Shown piece by piece: positions 29,292 through 59,128 of a stretch of 64,000 bases of DNA. The notes beneath the pieces were generated by a model. That model searched no databases and had not been told where the DNA came from. It saw only the letters and a program-made list of their open reading frames with translations. Location of the stretch: positions 1 to 64,000 of IMG/VR virus record IMGVR_UViG_3300017766_005733. One strand, given 5' to 3'. Every line of letters begins with the position of its first letter. The stretch's first letter is position 1. Source of the DNA: a virus. The position numbers and the translations under genes were made by a program.

Positions 29292-29839
29292 CAAGCCCCC
29301 TTGGTCGTTTCGAGGCACCAAACGGCTTTGCGCTCCTGCTTCAGCAGGTCGAAGAGGTCCTGAGGCGTGGTGTTCTCCGTGACGACATCACGGAACCCCG
29401 GATACTTCAGCTGCTTCAGCCCCAGCGCAATGGCCTCGGAGCAAAAAAGGGCGCTGGGGCTCGACAACGGATTGCGCCAGCGCTTTCGCAGCCAACGACC
29501 GAGGACGACGACGAGGAAGCCGGCGATGGCCGGGTAGTCGTAGCGATGCCCCAGCCACTGAGCGCAAATACGCAGCAGGCTATCGTAGGTGTCCTGCAGC
29601 GGAATGGCGACAACGCTCAGATCATCGATCGACTGACGGTCGATGACTTTGACGCCGTCAAGACGCGGGCGGAGATTGGTGGGGCGGACGTGGTAGCCAT
29701 CCCAGTCGGCTTCCATCCGCATCCAACCCAGCATCGGGTCTTCCCACAGCAACAGGGCATGGCTGTAGCTTCCCTTGGTGCCCCAACGGATGATCTTGGA
29801 GATCAAAGACTCCGATCGCGTGAAGACAACCCAAAGCAT
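29291..29839 (-). CDS. Permuted papain-like (NlpC/P60, YiiX/YebB-type) enzyme
   Basis: YSHALL (His first), LGHRYDY, FCSE (Cys last) and TPQDL motifs. Confidence 0.8.
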   Translation of the reverse strand: MLWVVFTRSESLISKIIRWGTKGSYSHALLLWEDPMLGWMRMEADWDGYHVRPTNLRPRLDGVKVIDRQSIDDLSVVAIPLQDTYDSLLRICAQWLGHRYDYPAIAGFLVVVLGRWLRKRWRNPLSSPSALFCSEAIALGLKQLKYPGFRDVVTENTTPQDLFDLLKQERKAVWCLETTKGA

Positions 29840-29883: not shown

Positions 29884-30732
29884 TCAGCGACCGGCAGTCA
29901 ACAGGGCGTCCATCAACTGCGGCAGCGCCTTCTCGGACCACTCCTTCTGCGCCCACTCCGCAGCCTCTTCAAAGAGGTGTTCTGCGGGTAGACCGGGGTG
30001 GAACCAGCGCTTGGTTCCGGCGTGTTTCGACGAAACAATACGAAAAGTCATGACCGAGCGCTTGACTCGTTCGCCGCCCGTGGCGTCCTTCACCTTATGC
30101 TGGTACACTCGGACGCCGCGAAGGAAGGGGATGCCAGTTGGCCCCTGCTTCACCTTTCCCACCGGCCCCCACCCCTGTCCGGGTCCGTTGTGGGTCTTCA
30201 GGGGACCAGAAGAGATGTTGAAAGAGTGCAGCATCCCCAGTTTTGGCTGCCCTGCTTCGTCCTTCTCGACCTTGCCCCACGGGATCTTCCTCTGCGACAT
30301 CTCCTGCTTGATGGTGGAGATCAGAGACTGCTGCGCAGGGGTCGTAGACGCCAACCCCTTGCCGGGGCCATGCGAGAAGGGGATGACACGCCACTTGTGG
30401 CCATCCTTCGACGTGTGGACCTGCCCCTTGCCGCCTCTCGGCGACAACAGGTCTTCGACCATGGAATGAGGCTCCATGCCGTCGTCGATCCAGCGCACAC
30501 TCTTGTCGAGGACAACAACCCATGTGTCGTCGTTCTCTTGAGAAAACGAGAGACCGGACAAGTAGGGCTTGAGGCGCGAGTGAAGACGGGCGTTGGCGCG
30601 CTCGATGATGTGGGCGTGGGTCGCCGCTGCCGTGTCACGCGCCGCCTGTTGCGCCAGCTGCTTGATGGCCTCTGGCGCCAGCGTCTGGCTGATCTGTGTC
30701 AGGATAGAGAAGTCCAGCGTGACATTCAGCAT
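29884..30732 (-). CDS. Neck / head-tail joining protein
   Basis: Start MLNVTLDF at 30732; LHSR..Y, VIPF.H and TFRIVSSK...WFHPG motifs typical of myophage neck proteins. Confidence 0.7.
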   Translation of the reverse strand: MLNVTLDFSILTQISQTLAPEAIKQLAQQAARDTAAATHAHIIERANARLHSRLKPYLSGLSFSQENDDTWVVVLDKSVRWIDDGMEPHSMVEDLLSPRGGKGQVHTSKDGHKWRVIPFSHGPGKGLASTTPAQQSLISTIKQEMSQRKIPWGKVEKDEAGQPKLGMLHSFNISSGPLKTHNGPGQGWGPVGKVKQGPTGIPFLRGVRVYQHKVKDATGGERVKRSVMTFRIVSSKHAGTKRWFHPGLPAEHLFEEAAEWAQKEWSEKALPQLMDALLTAGR

Positions 30733-30733
30733 G

Positions 30734-32569
30734 TCAGTGCCCCGTCGGGTTTCTCGACGACAGCGGGTGGCCTGCATGCCCCAGAATCGGCTTTGCGTTG
30801 CGGTCGGCGACGCCGGTCACCATGCCCGCCCGCGCCTGAATCCACGACACCGACCCGTCGCCATGCTGCACCTTGATCTTACCCACGCGGCGGCGATCGC
30901 TGCCGGGGCCACCCTGCAGCATAGTGCCCGGCGGCAGATTCAGGTGGTGACGCGGGCCGCGAGTCGCCATCTCCTCTTTCTCCATCGGGATCTCATCCTT
31001 CAGGGCATAGGCATATTGCCCGAAGCGACCGTCCATGGGCCCGGAGGGGTTGGCGTGCAACTCTGAGGCCACTGGCTTGTAGTCCATGCCATGCTTCGCC
31101 GCGACCTTGGCATGAGTCGCCGACGCCGAGGTGCTGTGGAGGCCGCCAAAGACGTGAGAGATACCCAACGCATTCTTGCCATGCGCCATCAGTGACTCAT
31201 AGGCCGCGGCGCCGAGCCCCTTACCCGCATGCCCCTTTTCGACCTCAGCGACATCGACCTCCAGCCCCTTCTCGGGGTGGTGGGTAGCGAGGACGCTGCC
31301 AACGGGCTGGCCGTTGTGGTGAATGCGCGCCGCCAGCTGGTCACCGCTCCCCAGAACGTGCAGGGAGTAGCCAGCCGCTCGATGCTCAGGGCTCAGAACG
31401 TGGCTGTAGTCGTGATTGGAGTCCCAGACCGGCGTGGGAGTGGGAATGGGCTTGCCAACCGGCACGTCGGCCAGCTTCTTCTCCAGAGGCATGCAGGCCT
31501 CCAGATCCGAGTAGTAGCTGGGCGATTCCTTGAGGTGGGCGAAGGCGATTTTGGCGATCTCCTTGGCGTCGGTGCTGACGTCGGCGTGCTCGCGCTCGTG
31601 CGTCACGCCCTTCTTCCACTCCTCAAACGGGATCTTGTCGAGATCCACCTTGAGTTCGTCCGCCAGCTGCTGAGCCTCGGCATCCGAGACGCCGTCCATG
31701 ACGTCGACCTCGGACTTCTTGACATCCACCGACGGCATGGCGCGCGCCAAGGCGATGACGCTCTGGATCAGGGCCTCGACCGACGCATAGGCATCGGGAG
31801 CCGCGGCCTTCAGCTGCCCCAGCATCGGCGCCTGCTGCCGGACCTGCTGCAGCACCTCGGCGACCTTCTTCTTTGTCGCCGTCAGATCCTGAGTCGCCTT
31901 GCCCTCACCCTGCTGCTTCTGTTCGTCGGCCTTACCGGCGACCTCGTGCAGGCTGTCGATGAGATCGGCGGCGTGCGTCATCTCGGGTGGCGGCGGGACA
32001 TTGGAGCGATCGAGCGCCTGCGAGCGCGCCGCCTCGCCTTCGCTGTGCTCGCTGGCTTCTTGAGCCGGTGACGCGGGAGCGGCGGCCGGCGGGGAGCGAG
32101 AGAAACCGCCGAAACCGGCATGGGTGCCGGGGTTCTCTGCGATCGCCTTCTTCAGGCCCTTGTCTTCGTTCTCGATCTGGGCGAGACCGGCGTCGATCTC
32201 TTGGCTCCAGAGCACCGGCGCGTCGCGACCCCGCTTCGCCGCATACTCACGAGCCCGCAGCGCTTTCTCGATGCTGGAGCCGATGCCGACGGCCACGGCG
32301 CTTTCCCCCAGCGTCTCCTTGAAGCGCTGGCGCTGGCGCACGACCTGAGGCAGGCCCCGCGGGGGAACGGAGACGACGCCTTCGGTGCCAGAAAGCACAA
32401 CGACGGCGCCGCCAAGGCCCTGAGCCCAGAGCAGCCACGAGTCCTGAGTCGCCTTCTGCACCTGCTGATGCAGACGCTGCAGGCCCTCAGAATGCGAGGC
32501 CGCCACCATCGGCGCCATGCGATGGCCCATGTGGCACTGCCAAGCAACGTACAGCTTCTGCTGGTTCAT
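30734..32569 (-). CDS. Polyprotein: degenerate mCpol/GGDEF-like + DUF5661-like + GNAT + C-terminal module
   Basis: GG.VV.LSGTEG / VGIG motifs; KGVTHEREH...KIAFAHLKESPSYY; HAGKGLG acetyl-CoA loop; linkers GLKKA, DVKKSE, PLEKK, ALKDE. Confidence 0.75.
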   Translation of the reverse strand: MNQQKLYVAWQCHMGHRMAPMVAASHSEGLQRLHQQVQKATQDSWLLWAQGLGGAVVVLSGTEGVVSVPPRGLPQVVRQRQRFKETLGESAVAVGIGSSIEKALRAREYAAKRGRDAPVLWSQEIDAGLAQIENEDKGLKKAIAENPGTHAGFGGFSRSPPAAAPASPAQEASEHSEGEAARSQALDRSNVPPPPEMTHAADLIDSLHEVAGKADEQKQQGEGKATQDLTATKKKVAEVLQQVRQQAPMLGQLKAAAPDAYASVEALIQSVIALARAMPSVDVKKSEVDVMDGVSDAEAQQLADELKVDLDKIPFEEWKKGVTHEREHADVSTDAKEIAKIAFAHLKESPSYYSDLEACMPLEKKLADVPVGKPIPTPTPVWDSNHDYSHVLSPEHRAAGYSLHVLGSGDQLAARIHHNGQPVGSVLATHHPEKGLEVDVAEVEKGHAGKGLGAAAYESLMAHGKNALGISHVFGGLHSTSASATHAKVAAKHGMDYKPVASELHANPSGPMDGRFGQYAYALKDEIPMEKEEMATRGPRHHLNLPPGTMLQGGPGSDRRRVGKIKVQHGDGSVSWIQARAGMVTGVADRNAKPILGHAGHPLSSRNPTGH

Positions 32570-32603
32570 GAAGACCTCTTAGACAACGAAGATTGCGGCG
32601 AGA

Positions 32604-33839
32604 TCAGCGCTTCAGCACCTGATCGGGATGCGTCAAGCCCATCTTCGCGCCAGCCTGATCGACGAGCCCCAAGGCGGTCTCAAGTGGCACCTTCTGGGCC
32701 GAGGGCACGAAGCCTTCGTCAGAGGGCTCAGTGAACTTACCCGTCACCGCGCGATGAACGGCATCGTGCATCACCGTGTTCAGTTCCTTGTGGAAGACTT
32801 CATCGGGGACGTGCAGCCCGATCTGCTCCGACAACTCGCGCTGCTTGTGTGCCGCCAGCCACTCCCAATGCACCGCCCGCTTGGCCTCGCGCATGCTGCG
32901 CTGAACCCCCAGCTTGCCAATGCGTCGGCCCTCGCCGTAGATTTTGTTGAGTTCCGGATACACCAAGGCGTGGGAAAGTTCATGGATCTGACGCCACGCA
33001 TCCGTGTAGTCACGATCACCAAAATCACCACCCGACGACGGCGTGGGGTCGTACACCATCAGGTGCTTCGTGTTGTAGTTGCGGTTGGCGAGGTCGGGTT
33101 TGCCGTACTGGCCACCGGCGTAGTAGGTCTGAAAGCCGTGCTGAGCCACAAGATCACGAACCGCCGGCAGCTTGCCGCGGTAGTCGTAGTGAAACAGGTC
33201 GCTCTTGGTCCCCGGATGAATGTCGCCGTAGGGCTTGGCGTAGTGGGCGTACGTCGAAACGCCGACACCCGCCGCCTGCTCGTTGGCTGGCTTCGGGGGT
33301 GCGTCCATGTGCGGGTGCGCGCCCGGCTTCGGCGGCGCCGGGGGATTGTCGGCCTTCGCCAGCCCCGCCATGTGCATGCGCGTGTGGCCGTCATGCCACT
33401 CGTAGGCGTGGGGGTGCGGGTAGCGTCCCCGCGGGGCCTCTGACTTCGTCAGGGCCTGCTCCTGCGGCAGATGGCCGTCAGCGCCATGGCCACGGAAGCG
33501 ATAGACGCCCTTCTGGGCCTGCAGGCGCTGGGTGACTTCCGGCGGCACGGGGCCAATGGGCTCGATACCCAGAGCCTTGAGGTGCTGCGAGTACAGAGCG
33601 CCGTGGCGCTGGGCCTCTTCGATGGCGCCCGCGGCCTTGGCGGTCTTGGCGCCCATCAGGTGATGGGCGGCGGCGTTCAGGTGCTGGTCACGGACGTACT
33701 CGCCATGGGCCTGCTCTTCGGCGGCCTCGCGCGTCAGGCCGCGGCCGAACTCCAAAACCGCCGCCCGATGATCGAGTTCAGCGGCGTGACCGCCGTCCAT
33801 GATACGACGCCCCTGCCACATCCCATCATTCTTTGCCAT
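32604..33839 (-). CDS. Polyprotein with C-terminal HExxH metallopeptidase-like domain
   Basis: IHELSHAL and a downstream HWEW; linkers ALTKSE and GLAKAD; start probably MAKNDG at 33839. Confidence 0.7.
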   Translation of the reverse strand: MAKNDGMWQGRRIMDGGHAAELDHRAAVLEFGRGLTREAAEEQAHGEYVRDQHLNAAAHHLMGAKTAKAAGAIEEAQRHGALYSQHLKALGIEPIGPVPPEVTQRLQAQKGVYRFRGHGADGHLPQEQALTKSEAPRGRYPHPHAYEWHDGHTRMHMAGLAKADNPPAPPKPGAHPHMDAPPKPANEQAAGVGVSTYAHYAKPYGDIHPGTKSDLFHYDYRGKLPAVRDLVAQHGFQTYYAGGQYGKPDLANRNYNTKHLMVYDPTPSSGGDFGDRDYTDAWRQIHELSHALVYPELNKIYGEGRRIGKLGVQRSMREAKRAVHWEWLAAHKQRELSEQIGLHVPDEVFHKELNTVMHDAVHRAVTGKFTEPSDEGFVPSAQKVPLETALGLVDQAGAKMGLTHPDQVLKR

Positions 33840-35283
33840 GATTTTGTCCCCGATAGACGGTGTCCAAGAAAGCGAAGATGGCGTCTTCCTTCCACTTGCC
33901 GCCAAAGGACAGCAGGTAGCTGGACTCCTTCTTCTCCAACTTCACGTCATTCGCCAGATCCCGGAAGCAGTAGCAGGCCTGAAACAGACCACCAGCCGAC
34001 AGCTGATGACCGTCACAGACGCCGCAGGCCGCCGTCAGCTGCTTCTCAGAGAGACGCAGCGACGGCAGCTTCATGGTAGCCTTGGGGGGCGGCGGCGGCT
34101 TGCGACCGCGCAGCTTCGGCGGCTGCACCTGCTGTCGACTCGGGGCATCGGGCTGAAGGGGGCCGGCCTGCTGCGTGGGTTTGTGCGCGGGCCCCGGCAT
34201 CTCAGCCGAGCCCTTTCCCGCCTTCTCCAGATCCGAGTGCAGCTGGTTGAAGTCGAAGTCGTGGGTGAAGATGCGGCCGTCGGGCAGGATCGTGTAGTAG
34301 TCCTCGGGCTTCTCGGCGTGCCACTTCGTGCCCTGACCCGGATGATGCTTACCGGTGTTCTCGCCGTTGACCATCAGCATCTTGTGATGCAGGCCATCGG
34401 AGTGAATCACGGATTCCTGCCCCAGATCACGAGCCAGCCCCTCGATCATCTTCGGGTTCTTGGGGTTGTAGACGATCAGGGAGTTCTCGGGGCGACCGTA
34501 GCTACCGATGGTGGGGTGAGCGTCTTCGCCGGCGTCGCGCAGGTACTGGACCGCCTGCTGGTTGCTGAGGTCCTTCGTCTTCGGGAAGAGGGGATTCTCG
34601 GCCGACATCAGGGTGTGGGGTGGCAGGGACTGCTCAGCCTTCTGCAGATCGAAGCCGACAAGTGACCGAACGGCATCCACCATCTTCTTTTCAAGAGTGG
34701 GGTAGCGGCGATCGGTCTCCATCGCCTGCAGCGTCAGCGACTTGTGGCCACCGGAAAGCGTCGCCTTGCCAACCTGCTGCCCCAAGCTGTTGACGGCATA
34801 CAGCAGCGTGAGTGGCGCCGGGCCGCTGACGTCGTATTCGTGCTCAAACGTGAACTCAGAGCGCTCAGACGCCATCTTGCGCAACGCCGCATGGGCGACG
34901 CGGGCGCCGACGAGGGCGTCAACGCTCTTTCCAAGGCGATACAGGTCGGCGTCCGACACGACCTCGGGCACGCGGCTGCGATCAAGGCCCATGACGACGC
35001 CAAGGGCCGCGGCGACGTGGAGCAGGGAGGCAGTGTCAAAGGAGTAGTCGACGTCGCCCAGCGTCATCGCGCCATGAAAGCCGGTGTCAGACTTCTGCAG
35101 CACCAGACGTCCGCCGACCCCCGGAATCTCGCCATCGTAGCCATGGCCGGCGAGGGCCAGCCAAGAATATAGGGCTCGTGGCACCATGGCGTTGTCAAGA
35201 TGCGGAAGGCGCTCCGCGGCCTTGCGAAGCGCCTTGGCGCCTTCAGGGCCGACGAGGGCCGTCAGGATCTGGTGTCGATTCAT
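33826..35283 (-). CDS. Polyprotein containing a T3 SAMase-like (SAM lyase) domain and a C-terminal Cys cluster
   Basis: LMSAENP / GSYGRPENS / LARDLGQESVI / YYTILPDGR, bracketed by DLQKAE and DLEKAG; CGVC..CYC at the C-terminus. Confidence 0.7.
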   Translation of the reverse strand: MNRHQILTALVGPEGAKALRKAAERLPHLDNAMVPRALYSWLALAGHGYDGEIPGVGGRLVLQKSDTGFHGAMTLGDVDYSFDTASLLHVAAALGVVMGLDRSRVPEVVSDADLYRLGKSVDALVGARVAHAALRKMASERSEFTFEHEYDVSGPAPLTLLYAVNSLGQQVGKATLSGGHKSLTLQAMETDRRYPTLEKKMVDAVRSLVGFDLQKAEQSLPPHTLMSAENPLFPKTKDLSNQQAVQYLRDAGEDAHPTIGSYGRPENSLIVYNPKNPKMIEGLARDLGQESVIHSDGLHHKMLMVNGENTGKHHPGQGTKWHAEKPEDYYTILPDGRIFTHDFDFNQLHSDLEKAGKGSAEMPGPAHKPTQQAGPLQPDAPSRQQVQPPKLRGRKPPPPPKATMKLPSLRLSEKQLTAACGVCDGHQLSAGGLFQACYCFRDLANDVKLEKKESSYLLSFGGKWKEDAIFAFLDTVYRGQNHGKE

Positions 35284-35289
35284 GCCACA

Positions 35290-36180
35290 CTACCTCGGGC
35301 TGAAGGTCCCCTGCCGAGGGGCAGGAGCCTGTCGGGGATTGGGGGGCGGAGACAGGGCCTCGCCCTGCACCGGAGCCGCCTCCGACTCAAACAGATATTC
35401 CCGTTGAATAGCCAGACTCATAGGCATCCGCTGGACGGCGCTGCTGCCATCCACCATCTCGCCACGCGCCACGCGCACCTCGTGAATGAGATGCGTGACG
35501 TACCAGTAGGGGCGATAGAGGTAGCGAACGGCGCAGACCTGCCCCTTTTCGCCACTGATGGGCGCAAGCGGACGACGACCGCTGCCCCAGACGATGGCAC
35601 CACGATCAATAGCGAAGTCTACGCCAAGGTGGTAGCGGTTGCCGTCGCTGTCCACGAGATCGATGACGAACTCGATGGGGAAGCTGACGCGATCTCGTCC
35701 CGACACCGAGCACTCAAAGAGTTCCCAGTTGGTGACGAAGATGCCGGGCTCCATCAGGTACAGGCGATCGTACTTCGTGGCGTAGAACGGCGTCTGGGTT
35801 TCGTTGTAGAACCGCGGCGTCGTCAGCTGAGCCGAGCCCTCATTGACGAAGCCCGGCGCCACCTGACGATCCGACGACTGGTTGCCAGTGAAGACGGCAG
35901 TGATCTGGCCGCCCAGCGTGTAGATGAAGCCATGGCTGCAGCCAGCGTGATTGTCGTGCGACTTCCGGATGTCGGTGGTCGACGTCATGCCGATGGGGCA
36001 GCGCATAGCGCGATAGTGCAGGAAATGGATGCCATGACCGGAAATCGCGACGTCGAAGGCATCGGTATCGAAAGAAACGAGATCGCGTGGAAAATCCGAT
36101 ACCAGAGCCACCGCCGGAGGCGGCTCAGACAGTACCTGCCCCCCGATCACGGGGTAGATGCTGGGCGTTTCAGCGGCCAT
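35290..36180 (-). CDS. Neck / head-closure protein
   Basis: RAMRCP...C..GFIY motif and VRYLYRP.W; position in the head-tail region. Confidence 0.65.
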   Translation of the reverse strand: MAAETPSIYPVIGGQVLSEPPPAVALVSDFPRDLVSFDTDAFDVAISGHGIHFLHYRAMRCPIGMTSTTDIRKSHDNHAGCSHGFIYTLGGQITAVFTGNQSSDRQVAPGFVNEGSAQLTTPRFYNETQTPFYATKYDRLYLMEPGIFVTNWELFECSVSGRDRVSFPIEFVIDLVDSDGNRYHLGVDFAIDRGAIVWGSGRRPLAPISGEKGQVCAVRYLYRPYWYVTHLIHEVRVARGEMVDGSSAVQRMPMSLAIQREYLFESEAAPVQGEALSPPPNPRQAPAPRQGTFSPR

Positions 36181-36183
36181 GGA

Positions 36184-36495
36184 TCAGTGCCCCTGACGCC
36201 GGCGCACGCTGTCGGTGATCGCCTCCCACTTCGGCAGCAGATGGCGGATGCAGTCCTCTTCCACGAACTCCGACTTGCTGAGTTCCGTCAGCTGGAGCCC
36301 CTTGGCCTTCTTCGTCGCCAGCCAGCGGGCGACGGCCTTGTGGCTGCCGACGCCAAGGGTCTCGGGGCCCTTGGTGCGCGCGGCGAGAACCATGTAGAGG
36401 CCGCCGACGGTCGAAACCTCATAGACGGCGTCGCTGCCGTCCGTGCCGATCTTCTTCTTCGACCGGATCTCGGATGCCGGGATAGTCGCTGTCAT
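36184..36495 (-). CDS. Small probable head protein
   Basis: GGAGG SD, upstream AATCTT box and an ELSKSE motif. Confidence 0.7.
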   Translation of the reverse strand: MTATIPASEIRSKKKIGTDGSDAVYEVSTVGGLYMVLAARTKGPETLGVGSHKAVARWLATKKAKGLQLTELSKSEFVEEDCIRHLLPKWEAITDSVRRRQGH

Positions 36496-36528
36496 GTGAT
36501 CCTCCGGATCGTCGCCCCAAAGATTGCC

Positions 36529-38580
36529 TCAGACGCCGGCCCAGAGGCCATTGACGAAGCCACCGAGGTCGCCGCCGGCTTCTTTGATCTGGCGCAGACG
36601 CATGATTTCAGGTCGAGGATCGATGTCAAAGGTCCTCAGAGCCTCGGCCATCTTCTCTTCCGAGAGAGACGCCAGCCAAGACTTCATGCGAATGGCAACG
36701 GACGCCGGCAAATCCGGCATCAGCGCCAGCTTCTGCTTCGGCGCAAGGGTGTTGAAGGTCTCACCCTGCGGCGTCATGAAGCGAAGGTAGAAGGGCGTGA
36801 AAGATTCCTGATCGTGGGCGGGATCGAAGTGGATGCCGGCGAAGGCCGATCCATGATCAATCAAATGGATCTCGCCCTGCGGATTCATGAGCATGTTGTG
36901 GCCATGCCGATCGCCGTTTCCCGCCACCCAGTCAAGGACCGACCACTGCCAAAGGCGGCCGCGGAGGCGGTAGGACTCCATGGCCGACAGCACCCGCCCC
37001 GGATCCTGTTCTCGGATGTCGATCAGAGGCTTGAACTCTTCTGGCAGGAAGCTGATGGCGGCGTAGAGTTTGTCGTCGACCTTGACCCACTCAGTGCGCG
37101 CGAGGTCGCCCGCAAGCCCCCAAGAGCGCGCAAGCTGCCAGAAGGCGCCTTCACGGGCACTCGGCGGCGCCGGATCGTCTTGGATGCCCTTGATGGGGCC
37201 GGCGCGGCCACTGCCCGGCTTCATGTACCAAGTACCGGCGGGGGTGTCGATGAAGAAGGAGCCAGCGCTGTGGCGACCATCGAGATGCGCTGGACGCGCA
37301 GAGAAGACATTGTCAGTCAGCAGCTTGGCGACGTCTTCGCCGCTGGCGTGCATGGCCTCGATCTTCGACCTCGGCGTCACAGGCAGACTGCTCTTGGCCT
37401 CCGCCTTCGTCAAAGACTCCGACTTCACCAGCGGCATCATCTCAACCGCCGCCTTCAGGATGCCTCGGTTCTCTGCGGTGTCGGGCCAGTTGATGGCAGC
37501 CAAGGCCGTGGCCACGGGATCGGCGTCGTTGAGCCACGCCAGATGCCGCAGGCTCAACAGTGCCTCTTCGTCGTCACGGGCCTTCTCGCCCGTCAGCGAC
37601 AGCGCCGCGCGCCAATGTGCATAGACGCCGGGAGGCAACGGCAACAGGAAGTCGCGGGCAACCTCCGACTTGTCAAGGCGAGCCGTCAACAGGCGGTCGC
37701 GCAGTTCCTCGGAGATGCGAGGCGGCAGGCTACGCATCATCGCCAGATGCCGCAGCCCCTCGCCGTCATGGAACGCGGCGTCCATCCACTGCTCAGCGTC
37801 TTCCTCCGTCAACGGCGCCGACAGCGGCACGCGCTCCCACGCCCCCTGCGGCAGCACCAGTTGCTCCCAGAACTGACGCCAGACGTCTTCGGGCATCAGC
37901 GCCTGCGCATCAGGGGAAGCAGAGGCGATGAACAGCAACAGCGGATTGTCCTGCGCCGGCAAGTCCGCCGGCGAGCGCTGCGCCAGCTGACGGTAGATCG
38001 TGGGGATGAAGTCAAGGGGCACAGCGGGCATCAAGGCATCGAGCAGATGCTGGCCGGCTTCAGGTGACTCAATGGCGAGTCGCTTCAAAAGCGCATCGCG
38101 GCCCTCTTTCGTGCGCAGCTGCTGGGCATTGTGCTCCGTAGCCGCGGGGTGGCCGACGATGTCGAGAAGGCGCTCCATCTTGACGTGACGCACTACGTCA
38201 CACCACGCCTTGCCGTCGTACAGCTGGTGAACGATATGGGGCGCCGGCAGATCATCGATGACGCGATCGGCGATGGCCTGCGAGACGTGGCGGGGGCCAA
38301 ACCCCGGCATCGTGGTAGCCAGTGCCCGCTCTCTTGCGTCATCGGCGGCCAGAGCCCGGTAGGCGTCGCGCTCTTCTTCGGGCGCTGGCTGGGAGGGAAC
38401 CTCGGCCGATGCCTTGTGGTTGAGGAAGAACTCGTGTGCCGTGGCGCGGATGGCGTTAGACGCCGCGGCGTTGCCGAGGGCATCGACATTGGCGATGGCG
38501 GCGGCGATCTGGTCGCGGGTGGCGCTGGGGCTCAGGATCAGCCTCTCAGCGGCCTTCAGTGTTGCGATGACGTTGCTCAT
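36529..38580 (-). CDS. Helical N-terminal region plus PI3/PI4-kinase/HipA-like kinase
   Basis: YMKP, REGAFWQLA, GNGDRHGHN and LIDHGSAF motifs following the linker LVKSESLTKAE. Confidence 0.85.
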   Translation of the reverse strand: MSNVIATLKAAERLILSPSATRDQIAAAIANVDALGNAAASNAIRATAHEFFLNHKASAEVPSQPAPEEERDAYRALAADDARERALATTMPGFGPRHVSQAIADRVIDDLPAPHIVHQLYDGKAWCDVVRHVKMERLLDIVGHPAATEHNAQQLRTKEGRDALLKRLAIESPEAGQHLLDALMPAVPLDFIPTIYRQLAQRSPADLPAQDNPLLLFIASASPDAQALMPEDVWRQFWEQLVLPQGAWERVPLSAPLTEEDAEQWMDAAFHDGEGLRHLAMMRSLPPRISEELRDRLLTARLDKSEVARDFLLPLPPGVYAHWRAALSLTGEKARDDEEALLSLRHLAWLNDADPVATALAAINWPDTAENRGILKAAVEMMPLVKSESLTKAEAKSSLPVTPRSKIEAMHASGEDVAKLLTDNVFSARPAHLDGRHSAGSFFIDTPAGTWYMKPGSGRAGPIKGIQDDPAPPSAREGAFWQLARSWGLAGDLARTEWVKVDDKLYAAISFLPEEFKPLIDIREQDPGRVLSAMESYRLRGRLWQWSVLDWVAGNGDRHGHNMLMNPQGEIHLIDHGSAFAGIHFDPAHDQESFTPFYLRFMTPQGETFNTLAPKQKLALMPDLPASVAIRMKSWLASLSEEKMAEALRTFDIDPRPEIMRLRQIKEAGGDLGGFVNGLWAGV

Positions 38581-41500
38581 GGTTCACCGTAGGACGCCGC
38601 GATGGCTTTGCCCTTCTGATACTCTTTCTGCGCCGTCTTCAGGTATTCGTCAAGATGTTTCGACGTGCCGTCGGAGATCAGCCAGTCTTTGAGGTTGTCG
38701 TGCAGCGACTCATAGCCCTTGTTCCAGCCCATGGCCGACTTGGGCTCCATGCCGTTGTTGATCATGATCAACGAGATCAGGTTGCCGAGACGCGCGTCTT
38801 CGACGCCGCCGCCGTGCGAAGGACTGCGCTTGGCCAACAGGGCGTGGTTGACCACGGCGTTGTTGAGGCGTTCGTTGTCGCCGGCGATCTCGCGACGATG
38901 AGCGAACCCCACAAGGCGAGCGAACTGCGCGCAGTTGTGGGTGTAGGCCATAGGCGTCTTGGCGTCCACCTCGCCGTCGTTCGTGAAGTGGAAGAACTGC
39001 TTGTCTTCTCGACGCTTCTGATGTTCTTCGGGCGTCGAGGCCGCCGGCATAAGATGATCGAAGGCGATGTCGTGGGAGTAGTGACGGGCGGGGATCTCCG
39101 TGGAGGCCTCTTCCATTGCCGCCTGTGGCCCGAGCCCCTTGCCGCGCCCCTCGTAGTCGTGGTCGCGATGCGAGACGCTGTGAAACAGTTCGTGCATCAC
39201 CACCGCCCATGAATCATGATGGGCCTCAGGGTTGAAGGCCGCGGTTCCGCCAAGGGATTCCATGAACTGGCCGGCGTGAGTCTCATGTACCCGGACGCCA
39301 CCACCATTTTTGGTCCCGTAATCGCCGAGGACGCCGGGGGGCAGCTGCTGGCTGGTGGCCCTGACAACCGACGTCAGGGGCAGCGAGTTGCCGCCTTCGT
39401 TGATGCCAGTGACGTGAGCCAGACCCCGACGCAGGCGCTGCAGATGAGGTGCGTTCTGGCCGTCATCAAAGGCCGCCCCCCACTTGTTCAGCGTCTCGCC
39501 TCGCACCTGCCCAAGAGCCTTGCTACGCAAGTCCCCCGGCGCCGCGGCCGCAGCCCGCATGGCCTTGTTGTGGGCCGCGTAGATGTCACTTGGCTGATGC
39601 GGGAACGAGAAGTGCTCGTGCTTGGGCACGAACGACGGGTCGATCTTCGGCGGCGGCCGATTCACGAAGTCCATCTTCTTCAGGCGCTCAGCTGCGGCGC
39701 CAGCGTGCGCGGACTCCTGCCAGAACTTGTCCTGACCGTAGGCGCGCACCACACTCACCGGCTGCTTCGCGAGATGCGTCGGGTCTTTGCTCTTCAGCGG
39801 CTTCCAGAACTCGTGGTTGCCCGTGGGCTCGCCGACGGCCTTCTCGGCCTTCAGCAGATACGAGTACGGGCCGGCGCGTTCGTCGTAGTCCTGTCCCGTG
39901 GTCACATGTGACTTGTACTCGGGCTCGTAGCCGAGGCCGTGCTTTGCCGCCAACTGCATGTGGGTACGAGAAGCGGCCGTGGAATGCTCTTCGCCGGCGA
40001 CGCTGCGCAGCCGCAAGTGATTCTTTGCGTGCGACAGCAGGGCCTCATACATCGCCACGCCCAGCCGCTGCTTCCTCAGACCTCGGTGCAGGAAGGTGTT
40101 GGTGACGTTGAGCGTCTTCTTGTCGACGCGACCAGTGACTGTACCCACCTGCTTGCCCTCGACGTTGTAGAGTCGGGCCGTGGGCATAGGGTCGCCGGTT
40201 TCATCCGGAACATCGCTGACGCGCAGCGACAGCCCCTGACTTCGATGCTCAGGCGTCAAGACGTGGTTGTAGTCGAAGCTGTTGGCACCGACCTTCTGCC
40301 CCACGGGAATGTCCTTGAGCGCCATCTTGCGCAGGAACGATTCGCGGTATGGGCCGTAGCTATCAAGGGCCTCTTTGGCGCTGGGCTCGTGATCGATGTC
40401 GCCGGCGACAGAGTAGAGTCTCGTCATCGGGCGACCGCTGAAGTCCTTCTCCTCGATGAAGCGCTTGTTGGGACTGTCTAGTGCCTCGTCGAGGCTTGCG
40501 ATTGGAAAGCCATTCAGCTTCGCCGATGCCACGGGGTTTTCGTTCCACGGCTCTGATGTCTGCGCGTGGTGCTGCTCTGGCGTCTCGGGGGCACCCTTGG
40601 CGCCAACGACGCCGGGCATCGCAAGGATCTTGTCCCAGACCTTGTTGGCCGTCGGCGAAACCGACTTGTCGCTTCGCATCTTTCCGTGATACCGCAGCAT
40701 GCGCTGATACAGCAGGGTGCCGTATCCGGAGCCTTGAGCGCTGCCATGGGTTGCTGTTTCGCCGTGCTCGACGACGCCATTGCTGTCGACGCTGGCCGCC
40801 GAGGAGGAAACAGGGAACCCAAAAGGCTCCTTGTCGTAAGACAGCATGTGCATCACGCTGTATCCGCCGTGGTCGTATGGTGTGTCCTTGACGACATGGT
40901 GGTACAGGGGCTTCTCGCGGCTGCCGTGGTCTTCCCCAGCCGGGCGCTGGCTGTGAGGCACCCGATACGTCTCGATGCTCTGCAGGCCACCCTCGTACTG
41001 GCTGGTGCGATGAGGCCTCATGCCATGCTGCACGGCCTCGTAGGCCATCTTGTGCAGGTAGTCAGACTTCTTGAGGGTGCCGGGCTTGATCTTGACCTTC
41101 GCCGGCGCCTTCATGCCCTGCATCGTCTTCATGTACTCTTTGACGTAACCCGACTTGGCGATCTGCTGAGGCGTGGCGTTGATGGCCGCACCGCGACCCC
41201 AGCGCCAGCCGTAGGCCGTGCGCTCAGGCGTCTTCAGCTTGTCCTGCAGCCACTTCCAGTGATCGGAGGCGACCTCGTTGTAGAACTTGTGGTCGCTCTG
41301 GAACTTGGCGGTGAAAGAGTCCTGATCCAATCCCGGATACTTCGCCTGCAGGCCTTTGCTGTTCTGGTACTGGTCGTAGCCCGACACGGGCTTGAAGCCA
41401 ACGGCGCCGAAGGCCGTGTGGAAGGGCCCCTTGGAATGCGCGGCGTGCTTGATGTTCTTGCCAAACGACGACTCCAGCTGCGCCACCGGATGCAGACCCG

Positions 41501-43052
41501 GATGCAGGCCCTCGGGCGTCCATTGACTCGACTCTGCAGCGGGAGCGGGAGCAGAAATGGGAGCAGCGACAGCCGGCGCAACGACAGGCGCCAGCTTGGC
41601 CTCAGGCGCACGGCCATGGAGCCCCAAGCCCAGCCCACCGAGGCCGATGGCGGCCGCCAGCGCCTTCTCTTTCAGGCCCTTTTCAAGGTGCTGGTGGGTG
41701 TCACCGAGACGCAGCGTCGGCATGGCATCCGCCACACGCTGCACGTCCTCTTCCGTGGCCGGGCTTTCGTAGTCGGGCAGGCGATGATGATGGATGTCAA
41801 CAACGGCAGTCGGCTGATGGGTGTGGATCTGCTCGTGATTGAGCCAGCTACCCAGCCAGTCGCCGGCTGCGTGGTCGCCATAGGCGTCGTGGATCGTGTC
41901 GCCAATGCGGGCGCCGACGTGATGGATGTCGTCACCCATCTGGATCCCCACCAGCCTCGCCTCAGGGTGCTTCTTCTGGATGGCCCTTGCCAGAAGGCTG
42001 CAGCCGCCGGCGTGCCACGTCGATCCCGCGGCGGCCGTCTGGTCAAGGACGCCAAAACTCTCGTCGGAGCCACACCACTCGGCGATTCCAGAGCCCTTTG
42101 CGAGGGCCTCAGACTTCATGATGTTAGAGTGAAGCGACGGATTGGCGTTGAAAACACTCTTGATCTGATGGGGGTAGAAAGCAACCCAAGTCCCATCGCC
42201 GAAGTCGACTCCGTCGTGGCCCTTGTTCCTCAGCCCATCGAAGAAGGCGGCCTGCCACTTGGCATAGTTGGGGGCCATCCGGTGACTTTCAACGTCTTGC
42301 GGCTGAAAGACATAGGGGTTCTTGATCGACAAATGGACGGGCATGACGCGAGGGGCGTTGTTGCGATCAACGATCTGACCGCCGGAGAACACTGGTCCGC
42401 GGCTGTCGTTGTCGACGGCATACATCGACGCTTCTTTCGGATCATTCGTAAACCAAGCGCCCCGCTTGCCGATCTTGAAAGAAGAAAAGTCGACGTCTTT
42501 TGACGTCCCATGGTAGAGTTTCAGGGGCTTGCCTTGCGGATCCTTGACGTGCGACCCCGAAAACCACTCTTGGAACTCGGGGGTGTCGTGCTTCGCCAGT
42601 CCGTCGGCTTGCGATTCCCCATCCTGCATCCCCAGCAGCTGCAGCGTCACGTTGCGCGGCGAATGCAGATTGTCGGCGATCTCCTTCGGCAGCCCCTCAC
42701 TGACATCGACCCAGCGCCACTCACTGCACTCGTTGTCGGGGTCTTCTTCCGTCGTGACGCGCGGCTTTTCTTCGTCGTGGAACGTCACCTGATAGGCATG
42801 GACAAGGATCTTGCGGCCACGGCTTTCGACGACGTCAGAGCCGAGGGATTCCAGCACCTCGTTCCCCGTCTTCAGGCCCGTCTCTTCCCGGAGTTCACGG
42901 ACGGCGCCTTCGTAGGCCTCTTCGCCGTCCTCCAAATGGCCGCCGGGCAGCGTCCAACGACCGTTGTCGCGCCGCCGCCCCCAAAGCATGTCACCGGCGC
43001 CATCAAAGACGGCAATAGAAGCAACCTCGACGGCATCCTTGGTATCAGCCAT
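38577..43052 (-). CDS. Polyvalent protein: Nudix + ART-like + papain-like + TM/lysozyme-like + GNAT + GNAT + HExxH peptidase
   Basis: GGHLEDGEEAYEGAVRELREETG; LYHGT..WFT..YA..L.IKNP..GHDG..QIKS; GGC..LA..HHV..DAYG; LESS; QGSGYG; RKQRLG; MHELFH..EEASTE. Confidence 0.85.
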   Translation of the reverse strand: MADTKDAVEVASIAVFDGAGDMLWGRRRDNGRWTLPGGHLEDGEEAYEGAVRELREETGLKTGNEVLESLGSDVVESRGRKILVHAYQVTFHDEEKPRVTTEEDPDNECSEWRWVDVSEGLPKEIADNLHSPRNVTLQLLGMQDGESQADGLAKHDTPEFQEWFSGSHVKDPQGKPLKLYHGTSKDVDFSSFKIGKRGAWFTNDPKEASMYAVDNDSRGPVFSGGQIVDRNNAPRVMPVHLSIKNPYVFQPQDVESHRMAPNYAKWQAAFFDGLRNKGHDGVDFGDGTWVAFYPHQIKSVFNANPSLHSNIMKSEALAKGSGIAEWCGSDESFGVLDQTAAAGSTWHAGGCSLLARAIQKKHPEARLVGIQMGDDIHHVGARIGDTIHDAYGDHAAGDWLGSWLNHEQIHTHQPTAVVDIHHHRLPDYESPATEEDVQRVADAMPTLRLGDTHQHLEKGLKEKALAAAIGLGGLGLGLHGRAPEAKLAPVVAPAVAAPISAPAPAAESSQWTPEGLHPGLHPVAQLESSFGKNIKHAAHSKGPFHTAFGAVGFKPVSGYDQYQNSKGLQAKYPGLDQDSFTAKFQSDHKFYNEVASDHWKWLQDKLKTPERTAYGWRWGRGAAINATPQQIAKSGYVKEYMKTMQGMKAPAKVKIKPGTLKKSDYLHKMAYEAVQHGMRPHRTSQYEGGLQSIETYRVPHSQRPAGEDHGSREKPLYHHVVKDTPYDHGGYSVMHMLSYDKEPFGFPVSSSAASVDSNGVVEHGETATHGSAQGSGYGTLLYQRMLRYHGKMRSDKSVSPTANKVWDKILAMPGVVGAKGAPETPEQHHAQTSEPWNENPVASAKLNGFPIASLDEALDSPNKRFIEEKDFSGRPMTRLYSVAGDIDHEPSAKEALDSYGPYRESFLRKMALKDIPVGQKVGANSFDYNHVLTPEHRSQGLSLRVSDVPDETGDPMPTARLYNVEGKQVGTVTGRVDKKTLNVTNTFLHRGLRKQRLGVAMYEALLSHAKNHLRLRSVAGEEHSTAASRTHMQLAAKHGLGYEPEYKSHVTTGQDYDERAGPYSYLLKAEKAVGEPTGNHEFWKPLKSKDPTHLAKQPVSVVRAYGQDKFWQESAHAGAAAERLKKMDFVNRPPPKIDPSFVPKHEHFSFPHQPSDIYAAHNKAMRAAAAAPGDLRSKALGQVRGETLNKWGAAFDDGQNAPHLQRLRRGLAHVTGINEGGNSLPLTSVVRATSQQLPPGVLGDYGTKNGGGVRVHETHAGQFMESLGGTAAFNPEAHHDSWAVVMHELFHSVSHRDHDYEGRGKGLGPQAAMEEASTEIPARHYSHDIAFDHLMPAASTPEEHQKRREDKQFFHFTNDGEVDAKTPMAYTHNCAQFARLVGFAHRREIAGDNERLNNAVVNHALLAKRSPSHGGGVEDARLGNLISLIMINNGMEPKSAMGWNKGYESLHDNLKDWLISDGTSKHLDEYLKTAQKEYQKGKAIAASYGEP

Positions 43053-51182: not shown

Positions 51183-52028
51183 TCACTTCAGCAGATGGGA
51201 CAACTTGCTCGCATCGACGTTGCCGCCGAGGAAGAAGTCGTTGATGAGTTCGCGATCGCTCTTGGTCAGCGACGCATCGCGGACCTTGGAGCGCAGCTTC
51301 GCGGCCATCTCCGACTTCGACAGCTTCGGCGCCACGGCGGCAGCCGCGGGCGTCAGCATGGTTTCGGCCTTGCGCATGGGCTTGGAGACGACGGCCTCAA
51401 AGGCGCCGATCACTCGCTCCAACATCTTGCCCTGCTCCTCAAGGCTCTTCTTCAGGGCGGCGACCTCGGTGGTCTCCGACTTCGCGATGGGCTTCATCTG
51501 CCCACCGTTGCCGTCGGCCTTCATCTCGCCCTTCATCGCCGGCGGCGGAGCCGCGGGAGCCGATGCCTCAGGGGCGCCGGCACCAGCAGCAGGACCACCA
51601 GCGCCCATGCCGCCACCCATCGCCGCAGCGAGGGCAGCCTGAGCCGCTTCCGCGTGCATCTTCAGTTCGTCAAGCGGCAGCTTGGCGTACTCAGACTGCA
51701 GCGCAGCCGGGTCCATGGCGCCACCAGCGTCGGGACCCTCGCCACCCTCGTCACCGGGGGCAGCCGGGTCGTCGGCCGGCGACGCGGAGGCCTCAGCGCC
51801 ATTGGCGCTTTCCTCCGACGGACCACCGTCGTCGTCTTCCGCGGCGGGGGCCGGGGCCGAAGCCTCGCCCGCGTCGTCGGCATCCATCTTCGACTTCTCG
51901 TCATCACCCGCGGCCTTGGCCAGCTTCTCAGCCCGGTCCTTCTCCGACTTCGCGATGTTGACGAGGACATTCTGGACATCGGCCAGAATGGCATCGATGT
52001 CGACGTTCGTGAGATCAGGGGTAGACAT
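51183..52028 (-). CDS. Probable scaffold protein
   Basis: Acidic low-complexity/coiled-coil protein just upstream of the MCP; many x-K-S-E motifs; AAGGAGG SD before the ATG at 52028. Confidence 0.75.
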   Translation of the reverse strand: MSTPDLTNVDIDAILADVQNVLVNIAKSEKDRAEKLAKAAGDDEKSKMDADDAGEASAPAPAAEDDDGGPSEESANGAEASASPADDPAAPGDEGGEGPDAGGAMDPAALQSEYAKLPLDELKMHAEAAQAALAAAMGGGMGAGGPAAGAGAPEASAPAAPPPAMKGEMKADGNGGQMKPIAKSETTEVAALKKSLEEQGKMLERVIGAFEAVVSKPMRKAETMLTPAAAAVAPKLSKSEMAAKLRSKVRDASLTKSDRELINDFFLGGNVDASKLSHLLK

Positions 52029-52067
52029 GGTGTAGTCCTCCTTGTTGAGTTTTGAGGAATACAACCA

Positions 52068-57400: not shown

Positions 57401-59128
57401 CAGCACCGCCTCTGGCAGCCGCCCCTGCTTCAGGGCCTGATTCAGCTTGATCCAGTTGCCAACAGCGTAGTCGTGCTGGCGGCGAACCTCAGGTGAGTTC
57501 CAAACCTGACGGAACTTCTCGCCTGAATCACTATCGGCATCCGGGTTGTAGAGGCTGAAGTGGCCGTTCTTGGTCTTCAACTGGCCTGTGTGCTCGTTGA
57601 ACGTCATCTCCGGACCCGAAAGGCCCGTGGGCTTGACGCCTTCGCCGCGGATCGTAAACGCAGGAGCCTCAGGAGCCTTGGGCGCTTTAGCGGCGGGGGC
57701 CTTCGGGGCGGGCGCGGCCTTCTCTGGAGCAGAAGCCTTCTCTGGAGCAGCAGCCTTCGGCTCCGCGGCCTTGCGGGCCTTTGCCAGCGGCTCAGCCTTC
57801 CGCAGCTTCGCGCGGATGTCGGTGGCGAGGTCGGTGAAGTGATCGAGGTAGTTGTCGCTGACCTCCGGAAGCTGAGACTTCAGAAAGTCGCGCATGCTGC
57901 CCTTTGACTCATGGTATTCCTGAGCCAACTTCACCAGCTTCTTCGCCAGTTCCTCGCGCTGCAGAGCCGCGCCGCCCATGAGGCTAGAGGGCGAGCCGGT
58001 GGCCATGCCCGCGTCCATTGCCTTCTTCATGCCCGTCTCCTGTTCACTCTTGCGCGCCTTCGACTCAGTGATGTCGATGGCGTCCATGGTCTTGAGTCCG
58101 ACCTTCTTGGCCGCAAAATGACGGTGATTGCCGTCGACGATGTCCCAGCCCCCGGCTCCGGAGCGGCGAACGACGGCCGGCGGCAGCTTGTCGTGCTGCG
58201 CCATCTGAACGTACATCGCATAGCGATCGTAGTTCTTGATGGGGTTGAGGTTCTGGGCGCTGTCGACGTCGATCGTGATCTTCTTGCCGCCGCCAAAGTG
58301 CTGCTTCAGGGCCTTCTCGTACGCGCCATCCCAGCGCTTGCGATCGGGAGTGCCGGCACGGGGGATAACGACGCCGTCCTCGGACTCCCACTGCTTTGGG
58401 GGCTTGGGGGGCTTCGGCAACACCGGCTTCTTGGCAGCCGGCTTCGGCTCCTTGGAGGCCTTCAGTGCCTTCCAGAGGGTCTGCTGCTCAGCCGCATCCT
58501 GCTCGATCTCGCCCGAAGAGCCGAGGCGGCCGTAGAGCGGGTGCTCTTTCTTCACCAACTCGGCGATCGGCTTCTTGGGCTTCTTCTCGTAGCCCTCGGG
58601 GGCGTTGGGGTCGACCACGAGGTCGCTGTCGCAGGTCTTGTTGCAGGGCTTGATGGTCAGCGCCACGCGACGCGCGATCGTGCGCTTGAGTTTGTTGCCA
58701 TCGCGCTCCAGCGTGGAGCCGTCGATCGAGAACCGGACAAGGATCTGTTCCTTGTTCTTCACCGCGTCACGGACCTGAGCAGCCAGCCCCTGAGCCGAGA
58801 GGTGACCGGCGCCGTCATAGAGCCGCACCATGCCGTAGATGAAGGGCACCTTGACCTTTTTCCAGAACATCTTCTGGCGGTCGTCGTCGGCGTCCGACTC
58901 CTGCATGATCTTCTTGGCGAAAACGATCTTGCCGACGATGTCCTGCGACGTAGCGCCGGTGGACTCGTCGTTGCGGTGCTCGTAGTTGGCGAGCCCACGC
59001 CCCTCGATCATCTCACTGATGTCACAGCCCTCGATGTCGAGGACTTCACCACTGGAATCCCATACCTGACTGGCAAAAATGCCATCAAGAATCATTCCAT
59101 TGGAACCATCAATGATGTCGTTGTTCAT
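54419..59128 (-). CDS. Prohead protease polyprotein: protease + ParB-like + MCP-like peptide + HhH-GPD-like + kinase + C-terminal module
   Basis: DSSGEVL..G, NYEH, FSIDGS and VALTIKPCN (HK97/herpes-type protease); IVDGNHR; IPGLAPKTA..VPDTH; GNDDRHGNN..LIDHG; RRKSFCARM. Confidence 0.85.
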   Translation of the reverse strand: MNNDIIDGSNGMILDGIFASQVWDSSGEVLDIEGCDISEMIEGRGLANYEHRNDESTGATSQDIVGKIVFAKKIMQESDADDDRQKMFWKKVKVPFIYGMVRLYDGAGHLSAQGLAAQVRDAVKNKEQILVRFSIDGSTLERDGNKLKRTIARRVALTIKPCNKTCDSDLVVDPNAPEGYEKKPKKPIAELVKKEHPLYGRLGSSGEIEQDAAEQQTLWKALKASKEPKPAAKKPVLPKPPKPPKQWESEDGVVIPRAGTPDRKRWDGAYEKALKQHFGGGKKITIDVDSAQNLNPIKNYDRYAMYVQMAQHDKLPPAVVRRSGAGGWDIVDGNHRHFAAKKVGLKTMDAIDITESKARKSEQETGMKKAMDAGMATGSPSSLMGGAALQREELAKKLVKLAQEYHESKGSMRDFLKSQLPEVSDNYLDHFTDLATDIRAKLRKAEPLAKARKAAEPKAAAPEKASAPEKAAPAPKAPAAKAPKAPEAPAFTIRGEGVKPTGLSGPEMTFNEHTGQLKTKNGHFSLYNPDADSDSGEKFRQVWNSPEVRRQHDYAVGNWIKLNQALKQGRLPEAVLATSVAFSQLSPNTPVPVHEMMYSYLLDTFKDKGMDIRDPRFGSPEVKQDWMSRDQPQAWPQSSRDYFTQHIGNLVTNQRDSTQTGRLAGERTSFMLPHNKFANMARYADAHQHMKDLVARHGVDGRSAVAELMGNKGKAELWEASRKRALDKGKPDPGAFQGLHIPGLAPKTARFAYAMLGAGNSFVPDTHFSRHLFGLDKDKDKNSIHHVRDDILWNPKNSELLSAMDRWYYRNHPSVKLMLQHPEFGSYFKDNPEQAVFPAFWGHWLSIAPHERLMEHKRANVAHNQAASHRPLFDEVQRLLQDPKESQQTVPARSTPLPESPAPQANLRFGFKKSERSGPLIDPRLAAALVRHWINHHGEEEASFRYYSQLLPLLMHGSENEDPILKAEKLSVEVRNAAAQLKKANGNPTEAAPTRGEGPADSSRHSLGLAQEADLVEKNPKRIAAVKITAADGSDRINNTPEQKALIDGVDLSRNLKAKPVHATESLTSPTQMWIPHPDGKRLVLVKHGHEWSYPHMGARETAYHNLARDVFGLGEYVPLTAMANHPGGWEMSMQEMVKNPEHHNSGSAAHLKTLMHLGDAGELHKLAAMNYILGNDDRHGNNYLFSRADDGKLSLKLIDHGHTFRNTAQEGTQSLEAQLHQEPGSGLQPRELRKPHYLKVYEFEKARPAAQSKGRVAGRAMMDPKSSPVHPDAVEWLRNLNGPKLRAEMEGMGLGDRAVDGVMRDFYALRDAWTKPGATTDTPAPWSDRGLFEGKDFAPAGQELHSDEPEDWQRSDWSGMKSASTSGPTRKMKKTDNEDAHDDEECSECGTDHVHIGAYIVEHCHHEEGSHLCIYDEKTGEKIAETEVSKDLDDALDKADKPFHGYNKNRHSRSGGLSDSYREKVNREEGSNLKRPVTGKVEPGSKAAKRRKSFCARMSGVKGPTSKDGKLTPKGAALKRWKCSKSTLEKSAGEGLATLSKAELLRALQSLGVAPQTSLDILRPKDKV

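Follow-up and report, generated by a model that had tools for sequence, protein, structure and literature searches.

The window analysed here comprises the first 64 kb (64,000 nucleotides, G+C ~63%) of the 131,625-base IMG/VR virus record IMGVR_UViG_3300017766_005733, itself ~80% complete by estimate. It covers the head-gene block of an uncultured phage related to Myxococcus phage Mx1. Mx1, published as a genome announcement, is the sole cultured relative among 50,697 phage records and has a matching gene order; a megablast of positions 30700–43100 against the same records returned zero matches. A long minus-strand operon starts with the terminase, the portal and a 1569-aa protein, continues through a GGDEF-type cyclase, a 293-aa low-complexity protein, the major capsid protein, ThyX and a nucleotidase, then through a 1491-aa polyvalent protein (P0002), a kinase-like 683-aa protein, several unknown proteins and a 611-aa protein (P0001), and ends beyond P0001 with two giant fibre-like proteins and the tail sheath. 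The genes for P0001 (30734..32569, minus strand, delineated from its open reading frame, Pfam matches and the orthologue P0073) and P0002 (38577..43052, minus strand, with orthologues P0035 and P0017 and a counterpart in Mx1) thus share one strand with the portal, capsid and tail sheath genes among which they lie, in a layout syntenic with Mx1. Both encode one copy of the same acetyltransferase-like GNAT module, and this module, together with the short joints that recur between the parts of these proteins, is the subject of this report.

P0001 consists, in order, of an N-terminal region, a low-complexity stretch, a VKKSE joint, a DUF5661 domain (aa 299–358, 31496..31675, minus strand; Pfam PF18905, E 2e-16), the GNAT module that this domain abuts, and a C-terminal tail, while P0002 comprises NUDIX and ART-PolyVal domains, unknown blocks, the GNAT module and a C-terminal HExxH region. 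Copy A of the module covers aa 362–526 of P0001 (30992..31486, minus strand; PLEKKLADVPVG ... YAYALKDE; family profile match 2–175 of 175, E 5.5e-80) and copy B aa 907–1070 of P0002 (39843..40334, minus strand; LRKMALKDIPVG ... YSYLLKAE; profile match 1–175, E 9.5e-85). An earlier note on this DNA had proposed that one GNAT module occurs in both proteins, with homology bounded by linker motifs and unrelated flanks, and the comparison bears this out. A BLASTP alignment of P0001 347–526 with P0002 893–1070 has 68 of 186 positions identical (37%, E 3e-23) and is the single significant high-scoring segment pair; the flanks are unrelated, as all remaining pairs have E >= 0.45. The edges the note had placed are good to 1–3 bases (M910 from 40325 and K1068 to 39849 in P0002; K365 from 31477 and K524 to 30998 in P0001). 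The 17 alignment columns upstream of the proposed start, with 3 identities and 31% nucleotide identity, are overhang, and the family profile returns the bounds 362–526 and 907–1070. Across the 108 predicted proteins of the record, all-against-all BLASTP recovered this module as the sole head-block pair at E <= 1e-4.

At the DNA level, the two copies share 50.4% nucleotide identity over 172 aligned codons, with a 34-base stretch as the sole blastn match inside the module, which points to an old duplication. The DNA of the joints is not conserved between copies A and B (31–47% nucleotide identity on the N-side), so that a conserved recombination sequence is unsupported. In a FastTree phylogeny of 204 copies, the P0002 copy clusters with those of its orthologues P0017 and P0035 (support 97–99), and the nearest rows to the P0001 copy are P0073 and P0059. 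The two window copies are therefore old paralogues, neither being the nearest relative of the other.

The shared unit is a GNAT-fold acetyltransferase module of ~165–175 residues. Both window copies just pass the 20.7-bit cut-off of Pfam Acetyltransf_1 (PF00583; P0001 21.1 bits, P0002 24.0 bits), and multi-copy relatives match it with E 1.9e-21 and up to 76.9 bits. An AlphaFold model of P0002 890–1085, built from a 23-row alignment, reached pLDDT 84.4 and pTM 0.80, with confidence rising at M910 and falling past K1068. Foldseek with this model returned 224 PDB matches at E <= 0.001, led by SpeG, EctA and RimI-type GNATs, and ranks 1–41 among the matches listed are all GNAT-type acetyltransferases (TM 0.4–0.55). 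The best match of the family profile to PDB sequences was at E 0.006, i.e. there is no close solved relative. The fold is that of the GNAT superfamily, and the family consensus H-R-G-K-G-L-G, with both Gly at >= 90%, would correspond to the superfamily's β4–α3 loop of the Q/R-x-x-G-x-G/A type, which binds the pyrophosphate of acetyl-CoA, although each window copy deviates from this consensus at one position; the family differs from the superfamily at large in its conserved N- and C-terminal caps, in several extra invariant His residues, and in being found almost solely inside giant phage proteins, as one of their internal modules.

To define this family, a profile was built from copies A and B plus one IMG/VR copy and searched against 1.84 billion representatives, yielding 478 proteins at E <= 0.001 (424 at E <= 1e-10 and 113 at E <= 1e-30). 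Copies were counted in 153 proteins, namely the best 149 of the 478 and four of our own, which together hold 266: one copy in 73 proteins, two in 56, three in 16, four in 7 and five in 1. Copies sit anywhere along their chains, whose median length is 910 aa, and their partner domains include NUDIX, PI3/PI4-kinase-like, PBECR5, mCpol, HEAT repeats, DUF5661 and ART-PolyVal. At least 80% of the profile is spanned by 204 of the 266 copies; a protein end truncates 10 others, and the remaining 52 are partial matches. Of these partial matches, 33 stop at profile positions 145–164; a canonical tail follows within 70 residues in 18 of the 33 and a degraded tail in most others, and we read them as probable insertions in a variable loop rather than truncated cassettes. 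The family is almost exclusively metagenomic: tblastn queries using the P0002 module and the four-copy protein P0006 both found only Mx1 among the phage records, and a pattern scan of IMG/VR gave 17 pattern matches, of which one locus (L004) was confirmed.

The edges of the module are fixed across the family. Junction tables compiled from 176 starts and 209 ends gave the start columns L (56%)-x-K (68%)-M (61%; K 38%)-A (82%)-I (61%) or L (31%)-x-D (74%)-I (66%)-x-x-G (92%), and the end columns Y (98%)-x-Y (97%)-x-L (76%) or I (22%)-K (87%)-S (44%) or A (13%)-E (81%), and no residue exceeds 28% beyond the cap columns. The N-cap is thus L-x-K-(M)-A-[IL]-x-D-[IL]-x-x-G and the C-cap Y-x-Y-x-[LI]-K, and tandem copies join as ...LKSE-LxK-MAI.... 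Where a copy lies at the C-terminus of its protein (17 cases), 10 end exactly at the K, 3 one residue short of it and 1 one residue beyond, with 3 continuing; the K therefore closes the domain, and [SA]-E is retained only if the chain continues. A non-GNAT module of P0004 (L004 2260–7083, an IMG/VR contig) also starts with ...EALEK-MALVHDD, and h-x-K-M-A, where h is a hydrophobic residue, occurs 125 times in the representatives against 4.7 expected, slightly above what M-type GNAT caps alone explain; the L-x-K-M-A cap may thus perhaps not be specific to GNATs.

Other module types recur alongside the GNATs. An mCpol domain opens some GNAT polyproteins (P0011, P0012). A PI3/PI4-kinase-like catalytic loop (GN.DRHG.N ... 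LIDHG) is found both in the 683-aa protein (36529–38580, aa ~540–600) and in the 1569-aa protein (54419–59128, aa ~1160–1240); the pair aligns with E 2e-6 over 80 residues, a second module type common to the polyproteins, and this domain accompanies the GNAT in many relatives.

Comparison of P0002 with its Mx1 counterpart, a 1479-aa protein annotated as a NUDIX hydrolase, identified five homologous blocks in permuted order: NUDIX, ART, an unknown block, a GNAT-like block and the GNAT in P0002, and GNAT, GNAT-like block, ART, NUDIX and unknown block in Mx1. Motifs of the form h-x-K(-[SA]-E) lie near the edges of the permuted blocks, and the Mx1 GNAT is flanked by MKKAE and LKSE. In P0002, all on the minus strand, the NUDIX domain spans aa 10–124 (42681..43025; Pfam PF00293, E 4.4e-20) and the ART-PolyVal ADP-ribosyltransferase domain aa 171–305 (42138..42542; Pfam PF18760, E 4.2e-16), just past which lies the joint IMKSE (aa 311–315, 42108..42122), kept in P0035. 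The conserved block of unknown function at aa 491–654 (41091..41582) is common to the Mx1 and L004 polyproteins by BLASTP; a first guess that it is a lytic transglycosylase was set aside, PDB sequences offering no lysozyme or other informative match. The block at aa 662–871 (40440..41069), shared with Mx1, has a weak GNAT-like core and a QGSGYG loop resembling GNAT motif A. Aligned to the GNAT family with hhalign, it scores E 0.0066 but a probability of 5.7%, and its Mx1 equivalent directly follows the GNAT of Mx1; it may be a degenerate second GNAT.

Changes at the joints are also seen between closer relatives. P0073 is collinear with P0001 save for two inserts at K-x-E joints, one of ~265 aa directly past MAKSE, the equivalent of VKKSE in P0001 (aa 283–287, 31709..31723, minus strand, upstream of DUF5661), and one of ~180 aa between KAE-LPMKK and KAE-LPAAKK, at the C-side joint of copy A (LKDE-IPMEK-EE, P0001 aa 523–533, 30971..31003, minus strand). 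Close P0002 orthologues differ by indels of 6–8 residues at joints (KSEADLQ, KSDYLH, EGDALAKA). Overall, cassettes are gained, lost and permuted at joints, and the cassette reading is well supported, the initial observation being real and generalising widely. The claim that the linker-delimited cassette is the unit of duplication and shuffling accordingly stands in so far as the module is a discrete mobile unit (266 copies in 153 proteins, the Mx1 permutation, the P0073 inserts), and has to be amended in several respects. The two window copies are old paralogues and not each other's closest relatives; what was taken for a linker on the N-side, L-x-K-M-A-L, belongs to the module itself as its conserved cap; P0001 lacks a K-[SA]-E between DUF5661 and GNAT, so that the cassette there is probably DUF5661 plus GNAT, a pairing found in 2 of the 153 proteins (P0001 and P0073); and one orthologue carries a deletion that ends within the ART domain.

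The earlier note had further taken the homology breakpoints as independent support for a polyprotein model. That step does not follow, as endings at domain edges are expected in any multidomain protein and by themselves are no demonstration of cleavage; the real support for polyproteins is the enrichment of the joint motif in head proteins, together with the terminal copies that lack S-E. The motif h-x-K-[SA]-E was observed 18 times in the 21 head-block proteins of the window (1.4 expected) and 3 times in the other 87 proteins of the record (3.4 expected), with corresponding values of 12 (1.19 expected) in the Mx1 head block and 2 (1.74 expected) in the 60–110 kb region of Mx1, i.e. a 10- to 13-fold enrichment in the head blocks of both phages. 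The non-GNAT parts of the 149 representative proteins contain 190 instances against 17.6 expected, and Mx1 and these representatives serve as independent replicates. All positions of the motif matter: observed-to-expected ratios drop to 0.5–1.3 when K is exchanged for R or E, to 1.4–1.8 without the S/A requirement and to 0.6–1.9 without the hydrophobic residue, and in 76% of 177 sites outside GNATs, L, V, M, F or I stands two positions ahead of the K. The motif is found four times in the scaffold-like 293-aa protein encoded directly upstream of the major capsid gene (51183..52064, minus strand), whose 290-aa Mx1 counterpart has four K[SA]E, and once in the portal, 50 residues before its C-terminus.

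A candidate for the enzyme that would recognize this motif lies in the same block. The N-terminal ~195 aa of the 1569-aa protein (58544..59128, minus strand), followed by LVKKE, form a candidate gp21/assemblin-like protease domain. With an AlphaFold model of this domain, T4 gp21 (5jbl) ranked first of 350,542 chains by Foldseek (E 0.01) and first of 48,161 by VIA-align (Z 6.9, in the middling range of that tool; rmsd 4.2, 125 residues aligned), herpesvirus proteases coming next. H51, H109, S134 and S138 are invariant across eight homologues of the domain. Weak PHROG 1028 matches were obtained at aa 370–414 of the 1569-aa protein and at aa 13–59 of its 1239-aa Mx1 counterpart, which is annotated as a putative prohead protease. 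Elsewhere in the window, a 182-aa protein of the ClpP/crotonase type (29291–29839, minus strand) matches PHROG 1128, annotated as enoyl-CoA hydratase-like, at E 4e-17, with Pfam and PDB sequence searches empty, and could be a second protease candidate.

We consider it plausible, with a probability of roughly 60%, that the h-x-K-[SA]-E joints are prohead-protease sites at which the polyproteins of the head block are cut. Recognition would fall to the prohead protease that the phage itself encodes, namely the candidate domain with which the 1569-aa protein, encoded beside the portal gene, begins. The large proteins would be loaded into the procapsid, the packaged chains would be cut at the joints into separate enzymes (NUDIX plus ART, the GNATs and the kinase-like domain among them), and the freed enzymes would be ejected into the host along with the DNA. 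The cassette between two joints would then be the unit that survives shuffling, because insertions, deletions or swaps at joints that are short, flexible and repeated would leave working products.

The scissile bond could be either K|[SA] or that after E. For a cut after E, the proteases of T4 and phiKZ cut after Glu. The same side is supported by SPN3US gp245, described in PMC10052503 as cutting C-terminal to A-X-E. Counted for a cut after K are the natural C-termini of terminal copies at the K position, the hydrophobic residue two before K, the L-x-K-A-[LM]-E conserved at the capsid N-termini of both phages, the L-x-K-M/A of the GNAT N-cap, and the plain L-R-K-M of P0002 where P0035 has L-R-K-S-E-A-D-L-Q-K-M. 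The conserved stretch at the capsid N-terminus (gene 49717–51126) extends to L-x-K-A-[LM]-E-A-G-[SN]-[YF]-N-A-x-P-S-[ST]-L in the window phage and Mx1. A near copy of it, FAKAMEAGNFNAAPSTL, lies within the protease polyprotein of Mx1 (L001 188–3907), and a diverged copy, MKKAMDAGMATGSPSSL, in that of the window (54419–59128, aa ~365–392).

Several observations weigh against processing by this protease into active enzymes. The motif was chosen after viewing the window proteins, which makes the window statistic partly circular. P0002 is made up of about eight blocks but has only two or three strict motifs, which leaves some domain edges without a predicted cut; K-S-E is absent on the N-side of the GNAT in P0002 and P0017, as it is between DUF5661 and GNAT in P0001, and the capsid protein lacks the strict motif, having only L-x-K-A-[LM]-E. 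The deletion by which P0035 lost most of its ART domain starts just past GLAKH and ends inside the domain. The model of the protease domain, built from 8 sequences, has a pLDDT of 49 and its structure matches are weak, such that these are leads and not proof, and the N-terminal 200 aa gave no protease in Pfam (at E <= 5–10) or in a phmmer search of PDB sequences. Finally, each window copy departs from the GNAT loop consensus at one position (H-A-G-K-G-L-G in P0001, with A for R; R-K-Q-R-L-G in P0002, with R in place of the first G) where the orthologues P0073 and P0035 retain it, and acetyltransferase activity of these two copies is thus only putative.

The most serious competing explanation is that the proteins stay intact as ordinary multidomain polyvalent proteins, with h-x-K-[SA]-E acting as a structural linker or as a packaging or docking signal, and homology stopping at the joints because the domains stop there. 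The scarcity of strict motifs in P0002 would fit this, as would module caps that belong to the conserved family profile, and domain mosaicism among polyvalent proteins has been reported without such a motif in the main text of Iyer et al. 2017 (PMC5512222). However, the motif is just as dense in the scaffold-like protein and is also present near the portal C-terminus, both classic protease substrates without enzyme modules, S-E is lost where a module ends the chain, and all four motif positions are constrained, so that we regard intact chains as unlikely.

Less probable still is processing not by the prohead protease but by an embedded zincin-type metallopeptidase. The HELFH of P0002 (aa 1287–1291, 39180..39194, minus strand) is a zincin-type HExxH that is invariant in three orthologues and that we regard as a putative metallopeptidase site, and autoprocessing by embedded MPTase domains is the model put forward in PMC5512222. 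A second HExxH of the block, HELSH, is found in a 433-aa neighbour (32604–33905, minus strand) together with an LTKSE joint; Pfam and PHROG gave no match for this protein. Against a metallopeptidase, the HELFH region had zero Pfam matches and thus no peptidase match, no HExxH was spotted in the sequence of the Mx1 polyprotein, which has five K[SA]E motifs, and the motif is common to the scaffold-like and portal proteins. Lastly, a recent within-genome duplication, suggested by the location of the two copies ~9 kb apart in one operon, is already contradicted by their 37% amino-acid and 50% nucleotide identity, by their separate positions in the 204-copy tree, and by the fact that only 22 of the 108 copies in multi-copy proteins have a copy from the same protein as nearest neighbour, and is highly improbable.

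The remainder of the block displays further features, all on the minus strand. The two giant fibre-like proteins (19006–23625 and 23641–27963; 1539 and 1440 aa) have repeated blocks in common that are 80–89% identical and occupy shuffled positions, and both show weak DUF5907 repeat matches. Two 174-aa paralogues lie side by side (17594–18118 and 18146–18670), 77% identical and with no family match. The gene for the GGDEF-type nucleotide cyclase (53168–54415) is located between the protease polyprotein gene and the scaffold and capsid genes, and Mx1 has a "nucleotide cyclase" at the same place. ThyX thymidylate synthase and the 5'-deoxynucleotidase (45810–46592 and 47041–47637) are encoded between the capsid and polyprotein genes, likewise in Mx1.

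Predicted head-protease processing would place these proteins among the T4 gp21-type systems (T4 IPs and Alt, phiKZ gp175, SPN3US gp245), in which one head protease processes the scaffold, the portal and packaged cargo at many occurrences of a short motif; by comparison of models, T4 gp21 appears to be the most similar structure to the candidate protease of the window. Here too, the motif is over-represented in scaffold, portal and cargo proteins and not elsewhere in the genome. Cleavage motifs are L/I-x-E for T4 and S/A/G-x-E for phiKZ, whereas the motif described here needs a Lys. The substrates of SPN3US gp245 include the portal, and the cleavages identified in that phage besides protease self-cleavage all remove N-terminal propeptides, as described in PMC10052503; in the present proteins, by contrast, the motif lies between enzyme modules along the chain. 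As for the cargo, P0002 (NUDIX, ART-PolyVal and GNAT) and P0001 (DUF5661 and GNAT) each combine at least two unrelated effector-type domains, and resemble the polyvalent proteins described by Iyer, Burroughs, Anand, de Souza and Aravind in 2017 (PMC5512222) in having many unrelated effector domains per chain, late virion genes and the hallmark ART-PolyVal domain. That work reports GNAT, ART and other domains, mosaicism and probable processing, with GNATs as a recurrent component, one family of which is typically found beside an ART domain, and draws an analogy to RNA-virus polyproteins. Its main text names embedded metallopeptidases as the processing agent and describes no joints, the word "linker" being absent from it and "Myxococc" giving 0 matches. 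Of the two GNAT families it reports, one may correspond to ours. What distinguishes the proteins studied here is a specific joint motif common to the scaffold and portal proteins, which points to the prohead protease. A literature search gave no account of this GNAT family or of a head-protease motif that includes Lys, with the supplementary files of PMC5512222, which possibly list the family, outside that search.

Taken together, these results turn a loose idea of polyvalent-protein processing into a specific prediction in the cultivable phage Mx1, namely which bonds would be cut, which acetyltransferase fragments of ~19 kDa would be found in virions, and which domain would be the protease. 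If the cut is after Lys, however, trypsin-based virion proteomics cannot separate such ends from tryptic ends, which is a practical warning for any such experiment. They also define a large GNAT family, made up of hundreds of clusters at 50% identity, that hardly shows among cultured phages and likely acts on host targets early in infection, and they provide a concrete case of how short protease joints could allow the free exchange of enzyme cassettes. We tentatively suggest, as a broader picture held with less confidence than the cleavage of the joints itself, that Mx1-like phages make true polyproteins processed by a gp21-like protease with a so far undescribed lysine-dependent site, and may inject up to five different acetyltransferases along with NUDIX, ART, kinase-like and other enzymes. 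The joint would then double as an evolutionary seam, and the effector set of these phages may evolve by the exchange of protease-delimited cassettes.

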